Origin: a virus
IMG/VR virus record: IMGVR_UViG_3300029461_000002
Length of the DNA: 54,208 nt
Reading direction: 5' to 3' (one strand)
Below the pieces are notes generated by a model, which saw only the letters and a list, made by a program, of their open reading frames with translations, ran no database searches and had not been told where the DNA came from. The position numbers and the translations under genes were made by a program. Position 1 is the first letter of the stretch, and every line of letters begins with the position of its first letter. This document shows positions 3,619 through 33,234 of the stretch, piece by piece.

Positions 3619-4548
3619 ATGTATTCATTAAATATAAAATGCTTTTTTTTCATTTGTGCTTTTCTTGTATTGTGCGAAGATACGGTATTGCCTCAATCAA
3701 GGAATAGCATATTTGTTGTTCCTAATGGCGGGAATAGTGGAATATCGTTGTTTGAAAACAACCGTTATAAAATATCTTCCGGACAGACACTTATGAGTGT
3801 GAAAAATATGTCAAAATATGATGAGGCTGAAATGATAGGCATCATACAAGACTATGGCATAGTAATTTATAAAAAAGATACATTTTTGGTTAAAATAAAA
3901 GATGTTAAATCTAAAGACGGTTTGAGCATTAATGAATTTATACAAAAGATACGTAATGATGATAGAAAAGCATTATTAGAATGCAAGATTAAGGAGTTGC
4001 ATAGTATGGTTACTCCAGTAAATGGAGACGTTTATGCTAAAGCTAATGAATTATTTGTGTCAAATTCTTTTATTGATGATGATTCTAGGATAATAAACAA
4101 AGGTGATGATTTGTTGCTTTTAGGGTATAATAACGATACTATATATTTTAACAAGGATTTTGGTATTTATTTTACGGTAGCAAAAAATCTCAATTCAGAG
4201 TTGACAAATAATATCCAAGCACAGATAGATAAGATAAAAGAAGATGAATATAGAAAAGAACAATTAAAATTGCAAGAAATTCAAAGAGAAAAAGAAAAAA
4301 AGTTGGAAAAATTGAAACAAGAGCTTTTCCAAAAAAGCAAGGAGCTATATGGAGAGAAATGTGCTAAGGCTATTATTGAAGAGAAAATTTATATAGGAAT
4401 GCCTTCTGGTGCTGTTAAATTATCTTGGGGTAAACCTATAGATATAAATAGGACTATCAGTAAATACGGAACTCGCGAACAGTGGGTATATGGCAATGGG
4501 TGTTATCTTTATTTTGATGATGGGATATTAGAGACAATTCAGGATTAA
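3619..4548 (+). CDS. Secreted/exported hypothetical protein (AT-rich accessory gene)
   Basis: 309 aa with an N-terminal hydrophobic signal-like segment (KCFFFICAFLVLCEDT) and a lysine-rich coiled-coil segment. Visibly lower GC than the flanks. Confidence 0.5.
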   Translation: MYSLNIKCFFFICAFLVLCEDTVLPQSRNSIFVVPNGGNSGISLFENNRYKISSGQTLMSVKNMSKYDEAEMIGIIQDYGIVIYKKDTFLVKIKDVKSKDGLSINEFIQKIRNDDRKALLECKIKELHSMVTPVNGDVYAKANELFVSNSFIDDDSRIINKGDDLLLLGYNNDTIYFNKDFGIYFTVAKNLNSELTNNIQAQIDKIKEDEYRKEQLKLQEIQREKEKKLEKLKQELFQKSKELYGEKCAKAIIEEKIYIGMPSGAVKLSWGKPIDINRTISKYGTREQWVYGNGCYLYFDDGILETIQD

Positions 4549-4629
4549 ATGTATATTCCCAACATTAATGATGGTGCCTGCAAGGGTGATATTGTGCATA
4601 CGGAAGTTTAATATAATGTAAAATGCAAT

Positions 4630-4989
4630 TTGAATATATATATGTATAAGTATTTTTTATTATTCGTTATGTTTGTTTTTATGACATCTTTTAAAGATGG
4701 CATATCAATAGAAGACAGGTTGGTTTCTTTAGAATCAAAAGTAAGTTCTCTTGAAAAAGAAAATAAAGATTTAAAAGATAGGGTATTGTCCTTAGAGAAA
4801 TATATAAATATCAATGATAAAAATGAAGTTGATGTCGAAAACAAAACAAATATAAAAAATGACAATAAAACAAATGTTTACAGATCGACATATTCAGATA
4901 ACAGATGCCAAGCTACAACTAAAAAAGGAGAGCGATGCAAGAGAAATGCTGAGCCCGGAAGTAAATATTGTTGGCAACATAATAAATGA
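4630..4989 (+). CDS. Membrane-anchored coiled-coil protein with C-terminal Cys-rich motif
   Basis: 119 aa. N-terminal TM (YFLLFVMFVFMTSF), a heptad region, and C-terminal CQATTKKGERCKRNAEPGSKYCWQH. Confidence 0.45.
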   Translation: MNIYMYKYFLLFVMFVFMTSFKDGISIEDRLVSLESKVSSLEKENKDLKDRVLSLEKYININDKNEVDVENKTNIKNDNKTNVYRSTYSDNRCQATTKKGERCKRNAEPGSKYCWQHNK

Positions 4990-26769: not shown

Positions 26770-28110
26770 ATGGAAAGCATCATCCTATCATCGGGCACCG
26801 AGGTAACCCCCGAGGACATCCAGAAGATAGCGTCGGCGGTCAACGACCTCTTGCTGACCACGTCGAAAGACCCGGGGCAGTACGAGGAGGCCAAGAGCCT
26901 GCAAGGTATATCGTCCTTGCCGGTGTTCAGGCAATCCGGCTCGGCCTACGATCTCGTGCGTGTGGCCATATCCTTGTTGAGGGGCGTTGACGGGAAACAG
27001 ATCGTCTTGCAGGTCACCGCCGATTACATACAGTGGCGTTACGAGGACGGGATGTGGCAGAACCTCATACCGCTCGCCGACTTGAAGAGGCCGGCCACGG
27101 AAGCCGCCGCCGATGTGCGTGAGAGGATGGACGCTATCGTGAGCGAGGTGAACGCCTTGAAGACCCAGTTCGAGAACGACGTGAGGCACGCCTTGGAGAG
27201 GGCGGACGCGGCAACCGAGAAAGCGAACACGGCGGCTGAGAACGCCAAGTCGGTGTCTGACCACCCGGGCTATATCGGCGATGACTTCCATGTCTACACG
27301 TGGGATTACGCTACCGGGGCCTATATCAAGACGGACAGGATACTGAAACCGGAGGCGTTCACGATCTACAAGGTCTATAAGTCCGTCTCGGCTATGGAGG
27401 CGGACAAGTCTAACGTCCCGGAGGGGAAGTTCGTCATCATCAACACGGGCAGCGTGGAGGAGGAGGATACCGGCAAGCTATATCTCAGGACATCCACGGG
27501 CTACGACTATATCGTGGACGTTTCCGGCATGAGAGGCTTCACCGGGAAGACCCCGCAATTCTCCATAGGCACCATAACGGCGGGCACGTATCCTTCCGTA
27601 TCGTTGTCCGACGGGGGCACGGACACATCCGGCAACCCCGTATACAGGATGAACTTCGTGTTGCAGAGAGGCCCTAGGGGATTCTCTCCCAAGATATCGA
27701 TCGGGAAGGTAACGACCGGTCTCCCGGGCACGGCGGCCCAAGCCACGATAACGGAGAAGGGAGAGACCGAGGAAGGGGTACCATTGGCGGAATTAGACCT
27801 TACCATCCCGCAAGGACAGGACGGGGCGGTGGTCGGCGTATACAAGACAAGGGAGATCGACCATGTCCCGGGGGCTAACGACGTGACCTACGAGGAGGGC
27901 GGCGAGACCAAGAGCTACCCTATAGGCGGTGAGGTCTACCTAAGGGAATCTCCCGGTGACGTTACGTTCTACAAGCTCCACGACATAGTGGAGGGTAAGG
28001 CCATATGGGAGGAGTCTTCCGGAGCCGCCTTGCCGGGGAACGTCTACTTGACCGGGGCGAATTACTACAATGAATCAGTAACAATTATCGATAAAGGGAT
28101 ATTATCATGA
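26770..28110 (+). CDS. Tail-fibre-like structural protein
   Basis: 446 aa, GC-rich, with a coiled-coil segment and a beta-rich C-terminus. 4-nt overlap with the DGR target gene. Confidence 0.5.
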   Translation: MESIILSSGTEVTPEDIQKIASAVNDLLLTTSKDPGQYEEAKSLQGISSLPVFRQSGSAYDLVRVAISLLRGVDGKQIVLQVTADYIQWRYEDGMWQNLIPLADLKRPATEAAADVRERMDAIVSEVNALKTQFENDVRHALERADAATEKANTAAENAKSVSDHPGYIGDDFHVYTWDYATGAYIKTDRILKPEAFTIYKVYKSVSAMEADKSNVPEGKFVIINTGSVEEEDTGKLYLRTSTGYDYIVDVSGMRGFTGKTPQFSIGTITAGTYPSVSLSDGGTDTSGNPVYRMNFVLQRGPRGFSPKISIGKVTTGLPGTAAQATITEKGETEEGVPLAELDLTIPQGQDGAVVGVYKTREIDHVPGANDVTYEEGGETKSYPIGGEVYLRESPGDVTFYKLHDIVEGKAIWEESSGAALPGNVYLTGANYYNESVTIIDKGILS

Positions 28111-30254
28111 GCAAGAGAGGAGCTTACGTATACCAACAGATAGAGCAGTCCACCGCCGAGTGGACGGCTGACAGCACCATATACCCGCCGTCGCTATGGC
28201 TTTTCGAGCGGTTATCGAACGGCAATTTAAACATGAAGTTCTCGGACGGTGTCCATTCCTACTCCGAGCTTCCATTGATGATGCAAGACATCAAGGTGAG
28301 GATAAAGACTAACACGGACACGGAATACGTCTTGGAGATAACCTCCGCTGAGGGAACCATAACCACGCCTAACTTGCGTGACCATTACGACGATACGGAT
28401 ATCCGGAATCTGGTCACCGGTCTAAGGACGGACGTTGATAAGTTAAAGCCCGTTGTCACATCCACCCCGTCTAACGGACAGATAACCATAACGCCAACCA
28501 AGGCGAAAGAGGACGATCCGGACGTGTCGATAACGCTGGAGACCAAGGGGGACAAGGATAAGTCTCTGATGGCCGACGGTAAGTACCGCAAGCTGCCCGT
28601 GTACGGCAGGAACCTGTTGCTGGGATCTGGGAAGAAGGTGAGTAACTCGAATTATCCTACAGCATCTTATTGGTTAACTGAATCTATCCAAAAAAATGCG
28701 GAAGTGACTTGTACTATATGGGGAGATTTAGGTGAAGGTCTTGATTATTTTATGTTATTTAACTCAGGTGATAGAGGAGATCAATTTGTCAGATATACAC
28801 CTGAAGATTTTGTTAAAGGAAAGGCTAGCAAAACATTTAAATGGAGAAGTCAAACAACAGATGGTGATGAGACATCTAATACTTTCTTGAGAGTTTATGC
28901 TTTTCCCAGATCAAGTACTACTAGTACCATCCACAAGATCAAGCTTGAATATGGTGATATTTCTACTGAATGGTCTCCAGCTTGGGAGGATACCCCGGAT
29001 ATAGAGGAGCGATACGCCTACGGTGTCGAGTGGGACATGGCATCGTCAAGCCCGGACGGGAAACGTGTTGGAAATATGCAACTGCATAGGGATTTGCCGG
29101 TGCAGAGTAAGATGCGAAGGTGCATGATTGATAACAATGGAGGTATACTAAGTTACGTTACAGGGTCGGATGAAACGATAAACGAGTCCTATCTAAAAGC
29201 CTCGTTAATGACTGAAATTCCAGATCATTGGACTAAGATTTACATTAATGGCACTAAGTTTAGAATAATGTTATCCGCTATTCCATTACCGGGATACAAA
29301 CACGTGGATAAATTCTACATATCAACAGTAGAGGCTAGGATTAGCAGAAGTACGTCCATGTTGATATCTATGAGTAGTGCTACCTCGTTATCGGAAGATT
29401 TCCGTGGCGGCGACAACACCGCTGAATGGGACGGCACCTATCGTTCCTTGCTAGGCCGTCCCGTCACCAACCTCACCCGAGACCAATTCCGGCAAGCCGC
29501 AAGGAAAAGAGGCAGCGGATGGGAAATGTATACCTACAACGCCCACAAGATCCTGTTCTGGCTATTCGCCGTCGAGTACGCCACGCTGGACAGCCAGAAG
29601 CCTTTCAACGCCCAGAAGGACGCTAACGGTTTCGCCCAAGGAGGCTTAGGTCCGGGACCTACTCAAATGACGGATTGGACTAATTTCAACAACGCCAATC
29701 CACTTATCCCATGCGGCTATACCAACGAGTTCGGGAACGGCTCGGGAGAGAAGGCGTATGTCGTGAAGAACGCTTCCGGCGGTACTCACGCCACGTTGAT
29801 GGCTAACAGGTATCGTGGCATAGAGAATCCGTTCGGTCACATCTGGAAATACACTGACGGGGCTAATATACAGGTCACCACGGGCGATGCCGGATTGTCT
29901 ATTCTATGGACTACCGATGACCCGTCGAATTTCAGCGACACCTCTTACACCGGTTATGACAAGAAAGGCAATATCTGCCGTACAAACGGTTATGCCAAGA
30001 AGATGTTGCTTGGGGAAGATGGCGATATAGTGGCCACGGAGGTCGGAGGTAGCTCCTCTACCTACTGGTGCGACTACTACTACACCTACACATCGGCTAA
30101 CCGCATGCAGGTGGTGCTGGTTGGCGGTGCTGCGGGCAGCGGGTCGGGTGCGGGCCTCGCTAACGTGCATACGCATCATGCGCCTTCCGATGCGGATCGT
30201 CGCCTCGGTTCGCGCCTTTGCTTTTTCCCCGAATTTCGTAAAACGTCGGCGTAG
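28107..30254 (+). CDS. DGR target protein: tail-fibre/receptor-binding-like with C-terminal C-type-lectin-type variable region
   Basis: 715 aa. The N-terminal segment ...STAEWTADSTIYPPSLWLFERLSNGNLNMKFSDGVHSYSELP looks like a phage-fibre N-domain pattern. The C-terminal 40 aa are encoded by the VR that matches the TR. Confidence 0.85.
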   Translation: MSKRGAYVYQQIEQSTAEWTADSTIYPPSLWLFERLSNGNLNMKFSDGVHSYSELPLMMQDIKVRIKTNTDTEYVLEITSAEGTITTPNLRDHYDDTDIRNLVTGLRTDVDKLKPVVTSTPSNGQITITPTKAKEDDPDVSITLETKGDKDKSLMADGKYRKLPVYGRNLLLGSGKKVSNSNYPTASYWLTESIQKNAEVTCTIWGDLGEGLDYFMLFNSGDRGDQFVRYTPEDFVKGKASKTFKWRSQTTDGDETSNTFLRVYAFPRSSTTSTIHKIKLEYGDISTEWSPAWEDTPDIEERYAYGVEWDMASSSPDGKRVGNMQLHRDLPVQSKMRRCMIDNNGGILSYVTGSDETINESYLKASLMTEIPDHWTKIYINGTKFRIMLSAIPLPGYKHVDKFYISTVEARISRSTSMLISMSSATSLSEDFRGGDNTAEWDGTYRSLLGRPVTNLTRDQFRQAARKRGSGWEMYTYNAHKILFWLFAVEYATLDSQKPFNAQKDANGFAQGGLGPGPTQMTDWTNFNNANPLIPCGYTNEFGNGSGEKAYVVKNASGGTHATLMANRYRGIENPFGHIWKYTDGANIQVTTGDAGLSILWTTDDPSNFSDTSYTGYDKKGNICRTNGYAKKMLLGEDGDIVATEVGGSSSTYWCDYYYTYTSANRMQVVLVGGAAGSGSGAGLANVHTHHAPSDADRRLGSRLCFFPEFRKTSA
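30109..30226 (+). repeat. DGR variable repeat (VR)
   Basis: 118-nt gap-free alignment to TR 30671-30788. All mismatches fall at TR adenines. Confidence 0.9.
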
Positions 30255-30281
30255 CCGCACGTCTCACGTCGGGATTTTTTT
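30243..30281 (+). terminator. Two mutually exclusive hairpins plus a T7 run directly 3' of the VR (hairpin A spans the target stop codon; hairpin B is a terminator)
   Basis: Hairpin A spans 30243-30262 (acgtcggc-gta-gccgcacgt, 8 bp with one bulge). Hairpin B spans 30255-30272 (ccgcacgt-ctc-acgtcgg, 7 bp with one bulge) and is followed by gaTTTTTTT. The direct repeat acgtcgg occurs at 30243 and 30266. Confidence 0.5.
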
Positions 30282-30293
30282 GTATAACGTTTA

Positions 30294-30647
30294 ATGAAGA
30301 TAAAAATGGAAGAAGAAAAGAATAAAGATGACGGCAGCTTGTCGTTCTTGAATATCCCAAGGGATAAGAACTCAAGGCATTTTAATTGTCCGGAGATCAC
30401 CCAACAGAAGTTGACGAATCTCACGTTCTGGGTAATCGATTACATGGATGGCGTGTCCACCAAGTTCGGGAAAGACAGGGCGCTTGTCATGATCAAGGAG
30501 AATCTAGAGGATAAGGATAGTGATGCCAAGAAATTCTTTACGAACTCCCAAGAGATCAAGTACGTTCTTGGTAAGATAAAGGAGATGGACAAGTTCCCGA
30601 GGAAAGTGACGATGCGAGCCTCCGGGAACAGGTATTATCTCGAATGA
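30294..30647 (+). CDS. Small ORF in the Avd position of the DGR (not obviously Avd-like)
   Basis: 117 aa lying between VR and TR. The sequence (LTFWVIDYMDGVSTKFGKDRALVMIKE...KVTMRASGNRYYLE) looks beta-rich with an acidic centre, unlike the basic four-helix-bundle Avd. Confidence 0.5.
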   Translation: MKIKMEEEKNKDDGSLSFLNIPRDKNSRHFNCPEITQQKLTNLTFWVIDYMDGVSTKFGKDRALVMIKENLEDKDSDAKKFFTNSQEIKYVLGKIKEMDKFPRKVTMRASGNRYYLE

Positions 30648-30670
30648 CGGAATGAGGGTCGATCATCCCT

Positions 30671-30788
30671 AGGTGGTGCTGGTTGGCGGTAATGCGGACA
30701 ACAGGTCGAATGCAGGCCTCGCTAACGTGAATACGAATAATGCGCCTTCCGATGCGAATCGTAACATCGGTTCACGCCTATACTTTTA
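30671..30788 (+). repeat. DGR template repeat (TR)
   Basis: Non-coding copy of the VR. In the VR frame it reads VVLVGGNADNRSNAGLANVNTNNAPSDANRNIGSRLYF*, rich in AAY codons. It lies 23 nt after the accessory ORF and about 135 nt before the RT start. Confidence 0.9.
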
Positions 30789-30924
30789 GAGAGGGGAAAA
30801 GATATTTAGATAACAAACAGGGATGGTGGCCTCGCCTCTTGGCGAAAAAAGTCTCCCCATATAAAGGGTGTTGGTAGGGAAACCGAAGACTCCCTATGAT
30901 AAAAAGCAAATTAATGACAATAAA

Positions 30925-31962
30925 ATGAAGAGAATAGGGAATTTATTTGATAAGATAGCGAATATGGACAACTTGATACTTGCGGACATGAAAGCCCGAA
31001 GGGGAAAGAAGGATTCATACGGCATAAGGTTGTTTGACAAGGACAAAGAGGGTAATCTAAGCCGTTTGCTAAAGTCTCTGCTGGATGGCACATTCAAGAC
31101 TTCCAAGTACCGGACTGATACCATCTATGAGCCAAAAGAAAGGATCATCTTCAAGCTCCCTTATTATCCGGACAGGATATTGCATCATGCCATAATGAAC
31201 GTCATGGAACCTATATGGGTTTCCGTGTTCACGGCTGATACGACATCATGTATCAAGGGAAGAGGAATAACGGAGGCGTATAAGAGGACAAGACGGGCTT
31301 TGTCCGATCGTGAATCCGTCTATTGCCTCAAGGTTGATATCCGCAAATTCTATCCGTCAATAGACCATGAGGTGTTGAAAGGCATCGCTCGGAAGAAGAT
31401 CAAGGACGATCGCTTGCTTATGTTGTTGGATGAGATCATTGATTCCGCTCCCGGCGTTCCGATCGGGAACTATCTTAGCCAATATCTTGCGAATCTTTAT
31501 CTCGCCTATCTGGATCACGAGATAAAGGAGATTATAGATATAAGGCATTATATCAGATACGCGGATGACATGACTTTTTTCCATCATGATAAGTGTTTCT
31601 TGAGAAACGTATTACTTCCGTGGCTTATCGATAGATTGGCCGTGTTGAAGTTGGAGCTGAAAGGGAATTACCAGATATTTAAGATCGCTGAGAGAAGATC
31701 GGATAAAAGCGGCCGTGGTATAGATTTCGTGGGGTTCGTTTTCTATAAGGAGCATATACGGATAAGGAAGAGGACTAAGCAAAATCTATGTCGTGCGGCG
31801 GCTAGATTGAATAAAGTCCCGAATATATCCTTAACGGAATACAAGGCAGGTCTAGCCGGTTGGCTGGGCTGGATATATGATAGCGATAGCAAGCATTTAG
31901 CTAAGAAAATTTTAAAACCAGAGTTTTATGAAGCGATCATGGAGCGACACAATGCCGCCTAG
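30925..31962 (+). CDS. DGR reverse transcriptase
   Basis: Has the IGNYLSQYLANLYL motif (DGR-type I/LGxxxSQ) and the IRYADDMTFF YxDD box. I prefer ATG 30925 (MKRIGNLFDKI...); the track ORF starts at 30868. Confidence 0.9.
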   Translation: MKRIGNLFDKIANMDNLILADMKARRGKKDSYGIRLFDKDKEGNLSRLLKSLLDGTFKTSKYRTDTIYEPKERIIFKLPYYPDRILHHAIMNVMEPIWVSVFTADTTSCIKGRGITEAYKRTRRALSDRESVYCLKVDIRKFYPSIDHEVLKGIARKKIKDDRLLMLLDEIIDSAPGVPIGNYLSQYLANLYLAYLDHEIKEIIDIRHYIRYADDMTFFHHDKCFLRNVLLPWLIDRLAVLKLELKGNYQIFKIAERRSDKSGRGIDFVGFVFYKEHIRIRKRTKQNLCRAAARLNKVPNISLTEYKAGLAGWLGWIYDSDSKHLAKKILKPEFYEAIMERHNAA

Positions 31963-32320
31963 AATAGAGCGGGACGGTGACGGTTCCTACCTGTACCGGT
32001 GGGACGTTAGAGAGGAGACAAGGGAGATGGGTGACGATATGGCCCCCGTGATCTCCTATAGTTACAACGAGGTCAGGGTATGGCCCACGTTGACTGCCAA
32101 CAAGATATTGGAGGCCTGTATCAACGCCCTATGGGACAAGGACGTGGAGCAAAAGAAGCTGAACGACTACAACGCCGCCCAGCTAGGCATACTGGACTTG
32201 TCATACGTGGAGTCTTATAAGACGTTCCTTAACGAGAGGAAGGCGTTGAAAGACCGTGTGGATAGCGATTTCGCCGAGTGGGAGGCGGCGAGAGAGGAGG
32301 AGAGCGTAGTGGTTTTATAA
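31952..32320 (+). CDS. Hypothetical protein downstream of the RT
   Basis: GC-rich ORF (track 31928..32320). The ATG at 31952 overlaps the RT 3' end by 11 nt. Confidence 0.4.
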   Translation: MPPRIERDGDGSYLYRWDVREETREMGDDMAPVISYSYNEVRVWPTLTANKILEACINALWDKDVEQKKLNDYNAAQLGILDLSYVESYKTFLNERKALKDRVDSDFAEWEAAREEESVVVL

Positions 32321-32343
32321 CTAAATAAAAAAGGATCGGAAGA

Positions 32344-32820
32344 ATGGAGTTTTTTAAGATGATTTGCAGCATGAGGGAGCTACTGACTGTAGTCGTGTTT
32401 GAGATGTTCATCGTTATGGTGGCGATGGGCTGGGATTTCGCCTCGGGTTATTACAAGGCTAAATTGAGGGGCGAGGAGCGTAATTCGTATGGCATGCGTA
32501 GGACGGTCAGTAAGTTCATACTTTACGCTGGTAGCGTATGTATAGCGTGCGGGATAGACTCGGTTTGCTACGTGTGCCGGTTCTGGGAATTTATCCATCT
32601 GCCTTTCTTGACCAATGTCCCGGTCGTATCCTCGATAGTGACCGTATTTATCTTGATAACGGAGGTTAGGTCTATCTGGGAGAAGGCAGACGCTAAACAA
32701 AGGAGGCAGGCGATTAAGACAGCCGACATGATCGGTAAGGTTGTAACGCAAAAGGTTTTGGAGGACGCTTTGACAAACGCTTTATCCAATGCCATGAATA
32801 AAAATAAGAAAGGAGAGTAA
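32344..32820 (+). CDS. Holin-like membrane protein
   Basis: 158 aa with 3-4 hydrophobic helices and a charged C-terminus. ITEVRSIWEKAD resembles the holin family 4-type motif. Lies directly upstream of the lysin-like gene. Confidence 0.55.
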   Translation: MEFFKMICSMRELLTVVVFEMFIVMVAMGWDFASGYYKAKLRGEERNSYGMRRTVSKFILYAGSVCIACGIDSVCYVCRFWEFIHLPFLTNVPVVSSIVTVFILITEVRSIWEKADAKQRRQAIKTADMIGKVVTQKVLEDALTNALSNAMNKNKKGE

Positions 32821-32823
32821 AAT

Positions 32824-33234
32824 ATGGGGAAAGACAATTTGCCTCGTGGGTATAGAAACGCAAACCCGGGAAACATCCGGATCAACGGAGACTTGTTCCA
32901 AGGTGAGGTACGTCCGAGCAGGGACAAGTCGTTTAAGCAGTTCGAGACGATGGCGTATGGCTACCGTGCCATATTCCGGATCTTGCGTAACTACTATAAC
33001 AACTATAAGCTGGACACGATCCGCAAGATGATAGGAAGATGGGCGCCGGAAAACGAGAATGATACGGACGCTTACATTAAGGCCGTATCCGATTACGCCG
33101 GTATCCCGGCTGATGATCCTATCAACATCAACGATCGTGAACAGATGATCCGGATCGTGTGCGGGATGAGCAAGGTGGAGAATGGAAGAGAGGCTGAAAT
33201 GTCGGACGTTATAGCTGGATGGAATTTACTTTAA
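32824..33234 (+). CDS. Putative endolysin / P5-like peptidoglycan hydrolase
   Basis: The RNANPGNIRINGDLFQGE motif (RNNNPGNI-type) is seen in P5-like lytic enzymes (from memory). Position after the holin. Confidence 0.5.
   Translation: MGKDNLPRGYRNANPGNIRINGDLFQGEVRPSRDKSFKQFETMAYGYRAIFRILRNYYNNYKLDTIRKMIGRWAPENENDTDAYIKAVSDYAGIPADDPININDREQMIRIVCGMSKVENGREAEMSDVIAGWNLL

Follow-up and report, generated by a model that had tools for sequence, protein, structure and literature searches.

ORF117, a 117-aa protein encoded between the target gene and the TR of a DGR in the viral record IMGVR_UViG_3300029461_000002, is likely to be a dedicated DGR accessory subunit of an undescribed family, one that probably docks on the reverse transcriptase (RT) and binds DGR RNA or cDNA, either in trans or as a domain fused to the RT itself. 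Its association with DGR RTs is well supported: the protein is genetically tied to them, and it is a free-standing copy of the beta-rich domain that is fused at the end of the Hankyphage RT. Judged by its modelled fold, ORF117 is not an Avd, and we regard the ORF117 module as a strong candidate for the cofactor so far missing in Avd-less DGRs. We infer that the protein binds the RT physically, binds nucleic acid and is needed for mutagenic retrohoming.

Four DGR accessory classes have been distinguished, namely Avd, HRDC, MSL and CH1 (Wu et al. 2018, PMC5758913), and no accessory gene can be recognised in roughly a quarter to a third of DGRs (PMC5758913, PMC7290462). In addition, approximately 20% of DGR RTs carry motif-less, unexplained C-terminal extensions, and one RT lineage is without avd (PMC5758913). 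A full-text search of the literature found no description of the ORF117 domain. The ORF117 family is thus undescribed, though it has already been catalogued, both as an unannotated PHROG and, unrecognised, inside the annotation of the Hankyphage RT.

The DGR cassette and the conservation of ORF117

The window, by which we mean the whole stretch of 54,208 nt that was analysed, contains a complete DGR in the order target gene with VR, ORF117, TR, RT-17 RNA motif and RT (Table 1). The two copies of the 117-nt repeat were identified as the VR and TR of a DGR because all 18 of the differences between them lie at adenines of the downstream copy. The cassette therefore has the features by which a DGR is recognised, that is, a VR/TR pair that differs only at TR adenines and adjoins an RT, and the RT itself is described by its NCBIfam profile as a group II intron-like RT. 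The initial annotation had placed a 117-aa ORF where Avd usually lies, after the target gene and before the TR, and these coordinates were confirmed. Its spacing of 23 nt between the end of ORF117 and the TR was likewise correct, whereas its distance of 40 nt from a terminator was not: ORF117 starts 39 nt past the stop codon of the target gene (30254), and the hairpin and T-run in this interval end approximately 12 nt before the ATG. This hairpin folds no better than shuffled sequences and was not flagged by the terminator scan; it could represent either a terminator or the hairpin of a DGR target site (low confidence). ORF117 has a second in-frame ATG at 30306. Elsewhere in the window, upstream of the prophage-like region, a 27-nt unit is repeated in tandem at 1-214 (7.9 copies, 93% matches).

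Table 1. Features of the DGR cassette and of the ORF that follows it, in window coordinates
Feature	Coordinates	Strand	Details
DGR target gene, tail protein of 715 aa with VR at its 3' end	28107..30254	+	phrog_5302, E 9e-104
VR	30109..30225	+	117-nt direct repeat with TR, 85% identity
Hairpin followed by T-run in the target gene/ORF117 interval	30228..30282 (about)	+	MFE -19.1 kcal/mol, z -0.97
ORF117, predicted beta-rich and OB-fold-like; likely non-Avd DGR accessory protein	30294..30647	+	ATG start, 117 aa
TR	30671..30787	+	117-nt repeat pairing with VR
RT-17 RNA motif (Rfam RF03020)	30828..30913	+	43.4 bits, gathering score 40.4, E 1.9e-6
DGR reverse transcriptase, 345 aa from ATG 30925 (listed ORF: GTG 30868)	30925..31962	+	RVT_1, E 7e-13; phrog_1423, E 2e-103
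Acidic 130-aa ORF overlapping the RT stop codon, non-Avd	31928..32320	+	pI 4.6; conserved neighbour

ORF117 is a real gene, conserved far more strongly than chance could account for. A protein homologue search yielded 405 clusters of homologues at 90% identity (E<=1e-3), and the best 120 of these 405, which are 66-98% identical and nearly all 107-117 aa in length, carry no Pfam domain and no informative name; an exhaustive HMMER search returned 194 clusters at 50% identity. In a 39-sequence alignment of the family, 29 residues are invariant and the C-terminus is fixed (...G.RYY.E). The protein also matches PHROG 19665 (E 6.4e-32), with residues 13-116 aligned to positions 2-104 of the 105 in the profile, and this PHROG is annotated with no known function. 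Across cassettes, the mean identity of ORF117 is 68%, compared with 55% for the RT, and both the target (approximately 44-52%) and the downstream ORF (25-44%) are less conserved than ORF117; the identities of ORF117 and the RT are weakly correlated (r = 0.29). The whole protein is mildly basic, with a pI of 9.1 (family mean, 8.9).

The RNA encoded between the TR and the RT also recurs. RT-17 was found at the same place in six other loci with a stand-alone ORF117, and in the Hankyphage-type loci its place is taken by RT-3 (RF03068; 100.9-146.6 bits), whereas no such match was found in the crAss-like phage cr50_1 or in the loci in which the homologue lies downstream of the RT. The position of RT-17 corresponds to that of 'Sp', the structured RNA that follows the TR of the Bordetella phage DGR; in that DGR, Avd is bound by a stem-loop immediately after the TR, and RNA elements wrap the RT thumb (bioRxiv 10.1101/2023.10.23.563531).

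Linkage of the ORF117 module to reverse transcriptases

In the stand-alone loci with enough flanking DNA, the RT starts approximately 230-300 nt downstream of the ORF117 homologue in 116 of 117 cases. On viral contigs, an RT start was found approximately 250-285 nt downstream in 78 of 80 related loci, and the other two are cut by contig ends. The loci from bacterial genomes (n = 80) consist of 40 stand-alone loci (56-73% identity to ORF117) and 40 Hankyphage-type loci (36-41%). In the stand-alone group, the RT follows at approximately 230-300 nt in 38 of the 40, the exceptions being one contig end and one decayed cassette, and the synteny holds down to an RT identity of 41%. In every locus of the Hankyphage-type group (40/40), the RT match ends right where the domain begins, just as in the annotated fused RT. 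The initial annotation had allowed for either a DGR accessory protein or an unrelated inserted gene; wherever enough sequence is available, the relatives adjoin, overlap or are joined to DGR-type RTs in essentially all loci, which argues for the former, and the survey of homologues revealed co-occurrence with RTs rather than a distribution mostly outside DGR contexts. The decayed cassette (L121, 4860-6430, from a Bacteroidales MAG) encodes a C-terminally truncated homologue; its TR-RT has given way to other ORFs, one of 89 aa and an HNH-like one of 185 aa, and the downstream acidic ORF is retained.

When phage genomes were searched with ORF117 by tblastn, matches were obtained in Hankyphage-like phages only, inside the gene annotated as 'reverse transcriptase'. 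ORF117 is 37% identical (E 5e-14) to the C-terminal ~100 residues of the 434-aa Hankyphage RT. The domain begins only three to four residues past the conserved end of the thumb (...HTLFKKL-TGKDMRSFKDLNV...), and for this reason the fused form can be read as an RT to which the small protein has been added in full. The same architecture, RVT_1 followed by an ORF117-type domain at the C-terminus, was seen in six representative proteins of 433-583 aa. In two other lineages (L165 and L166-168), a 105-aa homologue is a separate ORF that overlaps the RT stop codon. The module thus occurs in three layouts: encoded on its own ahead of the TR, in a gene of its own that overlaps the RT stop codon, and as a domain fused after the RT thumb; the fusion is what would be expected from the loss of the stop codon between overlapping genes.

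The broad family alignment comprises two subfamilies, characterized by 'DDGSL...RYY.E' and 'MK.FS.L.[IV]...Y.FT'; members of the first lie upstream of the TR, as in the window, and those of the second lie downstream of the RT or are fused to it. The RTs of the window and of Hankyphage are approximately 29% identical and belong to different clades, and the presence of the module on two clades so distant points to mobility of the domain or to its repeated loss. We also observed two proteins, P0226 (296 aa) and P0264 (176 aa), that have a Hankyphage-type domain at the C-terminus and an N-terminal part that is not an RT, this part being a BPD_transp_2 permease fragment in one of them and an unrelated segment in the other; they may be assembly chimeras or insertions of the transposable phage into host genes.

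The module is absent from some related DGRs. In the phage collection, the RTs closest to that of the window are crAss-like (45-55% identity), and tblastn with ORF117 gave no match in these crAss-like records. The RT of cr50_1 is 46% identical to the window RT and stands in a VR-TR-RT layout, and the interval between its VR and TR (273 nt, start to start) contains no coding-strand ORF of at least 40 aa. If ORF117-TR-RT is removed from the window, the tail-protein/acidic-ORF order of cr50_1 is obtained, which argues that ORF117 travels with the TR-RT. Judged from these sequences, only some Avd-less DGRs have the module as an accessory, and it is dispensable in related DGRs.

A comparison of the 28000-33000 stretch of the window with cr50_1 (NC_055868.1) revealed 91% nucleotide identity between window positions 29412-30229, which span the 3' third of the target gene together with its VR, and positions 94597-95411 of cr50_1; the rest of this stretch had no match. 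This suggests that a receptor-binding module was recently exchanged between phages of unrelated types. The tail-protein gene of cr50_1 that matches the window target is a different one from the gene paired with the detected TR of cr50_1.

The acidic ORF that overlaps the RT stop codon was considered as an Avd candidate and rejected: it is acidic, its AlphaFold model (pLDDT 89.5) is predicted to consist of a beta-hairpin and three helices, and it has no match in the PDB. This ORF is 60% identical to cr50_1 gp045, and because gp045 comes after a tail protein and not after an RT, the window ORF probably belongs to the tail module and not to the DGR. In cr50_1 (L169), two copies of the acidic ORF (1572-1916 and 4264-4650) flank the tail protein. 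An acidic 161-aa DUF4376 ORF, labelled 'Avd' in PV107404, is found right after the Hankyphage RT and, by its size and acidity, would resemble the CH1 of Wu et al. 2018. An N-terminal 'RWD[IV].E' motif is common to the acidic small ORFs of the window (31928-32320), Hankyphage (L001, 4333-4818) and cr50_1 (L169), and the likeness between the window ORF and the DUF4376 ORF is limited to this short motif (hhalign probability 12%). The acidic ORFs with the RWD motif may be associated with tails rather than parts of the DGR. No canonical Avd was detected elsewhere in the window among the Pfam matches listed for 36 small ORFs across it, the other 7 of the 32 matched families being weaker than E 0.0049.

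Predicted fold and tests of family membership

ORF117 shares several traits with Avd, in that it is small, basic and encoded between the target gene and the TR-RT. Its AlphaFold model, which was built on the family alignment (pLDDT 83, pTM 0.69), is of a different kind: residues 1-30 are of low confidence, and the remainder is predicted to form five strands and one 12-residue helix (E44-56, E59-68, E79-83, H86-97, E103-110 and E113-116) instead of a four-helix bundle. The strand-like hydrophobic runs pointed out in the initial annotation correspond to the modelled strands 44-56, 59-68, 103-110 and 113-116, and the acidic centre that it described falls in the loop 69-78, the whole protein still being basic. 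The predicted order of the elements, b1-b2-b3-helix-b4-b5, is that of the OB fold, and the model is assigned to this fold by the order together with non-significant PDB matches.

Foldseek comparison of the model with the PDB yielded no significant match (best E 0.33, TM <= 0.38), and neither Avd nor HRDC nor MutS was returned. OB folds recur among these weak matches, which include AB5 toxin B subunits, Teb1 OB-A, hSSB1, MCM10, PriB and telomere-end proteins. In BFVD, the top three matches are phage RTs (E 1.4e-6 to 1.6e-4, TM ~0.6), and phage 'ssDNA binding proteins' appear among the weaker ones (E 0.007-0.016, TM 0.44-0.49).

Sequence searches gave a similar picture. Neither ORF117 nor any of 38 diverse relatives matched Avd (PF05635-type / 23S rRNA-IVS), HRDC or MutS_I in Pfam at E<=1. 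For ORF117 itself, Pfam and NCBIfam returned nothing meaningful, the PADLOC defence-system library gave no match, and solved structures, Avd included, were not matched by sequence or by family profile. The initial view that this ORF is not a canonical Avd is thereby upheld by the profile searches, by the beta-rich model and by Foldseek, and the Foldseek and Pfam checks together produced no confident match to the Avd four-helix bundle.

Several other assignments were examined and set aside. A likeness to the ribbon-helix-helix protein MatP (4d8j), with an E of 0.0045 in a single-sequence search, weakened to 0.47 with the family profile and disappeared with a broader profile, and we attribute it to chance; this assignment is also at odds with the confident beta-hairpin in the model. 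Sub-threshold matches of residues 37-104 to Trep_dent_lipo (TIGR01781, E 2.6e-5; PF09710, E 8e-4), seen in 2 of 39 family members, are probably due to chance as well. Assignment as an HRDC accessory protein was rejected on the lack of an HRDC profile match and on the beta-rich model, and assignment as MSL was rejected on the lack of a MutS_I match, the lack of MutS in the Foldseek results and the lack of a detected avd in the window. CH1, at 160-169 aa and acidic, is set apart by its description from ORF117, which has 117 aa and a pI of 9.1.

Role of ORF117 and comparison with known systems

As a dedicated accessory subunit, ORF117 would be composed of a conserved, unstructured N-terminal segment of approximately 30 residues and an 80-residue beta-rich domain with the strand order of the OB fold. 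Since the fused copy is joined to the RT directly after the thumb, we predict that ORF117 docks close to this part of the RT. The N-terminal segment, common to the free and fused forms, may become ordered upon binding and, together with the KFFTNS, FP and C-terminal aromatic motifs, would be a likely contact or binding surface. The putative barrel would offer F45, K57, R62, K68, K80-F81-F82, R103, R113 and Y114/Y115 to single-stranded RNA or DNA, and in this manner the surface of ORF117 could hold either the DGR RNA (TR and RT-17 element) or the cDNA as it is being synthesised. ORF117 would then fill, with a different fold, the role that Avd has in the Bordetella phage DGR. A role on the RNA side is slightly favoured over one in the handling of cDNA or target, since ORF117 adjoins the TR and RT-17. 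A more far-reaching proposal is that ORF117 and the C-terminal domain of the Hankyphage RT together represent a fifth DGR accessory class, consisting of OB-fold-like nucleic-acid binders that dock on the RT, stand in for Avd in many Avd-less gut DGRs and have moved between free-standing forms, upstream or downstream of the RT, and RT-fused forms; for us, the chances of this proposal are evenly balanced.

The rival to be taken most seriously is that ORF117 is indeed a DGR subunit but acts after cDNA synthesis, holding the cDNA or recognising target DNA when it is integrated at the VR, rather than in RNA recognition or priming. In group II intron RTs, a DNA-binding (D) domain follows the thumb. 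These RTs are the closest relatives of DGR RTs (PMC5758913), and the fused form of the module, directly after the RT thumb, occupies the D-domain position. The predicted OB-like fold and the weak matches to ssDNA-binding proteins would fit such a role, and the related RTs that stand in a VR-TR-RT layout without the module suggest that cDNA synthesis itself may not need ORF117. However, the D domain showed no sequence or structural match to ORF117 by Foldseek against the PDB, in Pfam or by profile against the PDB; the placement beside the TR and the RT-17 RNA fits a role on the RNA side equally well, and nothing in the sequence or the model tells predicted RNA binding apart from predicted DNA binding. 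We therefore consider a function confined to the steps after cDNA synthesis possible but rather doubtful. It appears improbable to us that ORF117 instead works for the variable tail protein, for instance in its folding, assembly or regulation, and is only a companion of the DGR. The gene does directly follow the tail-protein gene in the tail module, and the target gene is conserved upstream in related loci, but the module is fused to or overlaps the RT in lineages with quite different targets (approximately 2,200 aa in Hankyphage), cr50_1 possesses the 3' region of the tail protein at 91% nucleotide identity without ORF117, and the comparison of gene order indicates that ORF117 travels with the TR-RT.

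The remaining explanations carry very little weight. A highly diverged Avd, HRDC or MutS-like (MSL) protein would account for the Avd position between target and TR and for a small size and basic character like those of Avd, and weak MutS_I similarity has been noted in three RT C-terminal extensions (Wu et al., PMC5758913). Such a descent is very unlikely, given that ORF117 and its 38 relatives yielded neither an Avd, HRDC or MutS_I match at E<=1 nor a profile match in the PDB, and that the confidently modelled core is beta-rich and recovers none of the three by Foldseek; in the case of MSL, moreover, the genes co-occur with avd (PMC5758913), which was not detected in the window cassette. An unrelated inserted gene (moron) or a spurious ORF is effectively refuted, there being nothing in favour of it beyond the lack of annotation of PHROG 19665. 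Against it stand hundreds of conserved homologues, uniform in length and in their C-terminus, a synteny with the RT that is constant even at 41% RT identity, repeated fusions to RTs and the fact that the only cassette to have lost its TR-RT (L121) has a truncated ORF117.

A dedicated accessory subunit is accordingly the reading that we prefer, and it has several implications. ORF117 is a conserved orphan protein that the gene-fusion ('Rosetta-stone') argument ties to DGR RTs, and its homology explains the unannotated C-terminal RT extension of the globally common Hankyphage. The module provides an added marker for the annotation of DGR cassettes. If our reading is correct, 'Avd-independent' mutagenic retrohoming can be tested with a two-protein or a single-protein system. 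A compact non-Avd cofactor, or a single-chain RT that includes it, could also aid engineered DGR mutagenesis, which now relies on bRT and Avd.

Among known systems, ORF117 resembles HRDC, MSL and CH1 (Wu et al. 2018) in being a small non-Avd protein found in a subset of DGR cassettes, and it differs from CH1 (160-169 aa, pI 4.7; PMC5758913) in both length and charge. Compared with the four named classes, the PAG1-4 candidates of Wu et al. being outside this comparison, ORF117 lacks the defining features of Avd, HRDC, MSL and CH1 and would constitute an additional accessory class. It shares with OB-fold domains, such as those of SSB, PriB and telomere-end proteins, the predicted strand order and conserved aromatic and basic residues; unlike proven OB-fold domains, it has no significant structural match (best E in the PDB, 0.33) or sequence match.

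The parallel with the Bordetella phage DGR lies in the arrangement of the cassette. Like Avd, ORF117 is small, basic, linked to a DGR RT and placed between the target gene and the TR, and in both cassettes a structured RNA lies downstream of the TR. By analogy, its likely role would be similar to that of Avd, namely as a partner of the RT that helps to handle the DGR RNA. Unlike Avd, which is a four-helix bundle that forms a pentameric barrel, ORF117 is predicted to be beta-rich and OB-like, and the two have no sequence relationship. Furthermore, the ORF117 module can be fused at the C-terminus of the RT and is absent from closely related RT lineages, whereas we know of no Avd-RT fusion.

The closest counterpart is the RT extension of Hankyphage (Bacteroides phage p00). 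Unlike the extension, ORF117 is a polypeptide in its own right, with its gene ahead of the TR, and its cassette carries RT-17 where Hankyphage carries RT-3. The two nevertheless share a DGR context and homology over essentially the whole of ORF117, including the N-terminal 'SF..LN[IV]', KFFTNS, FP and C-terminal aromatic motifs.
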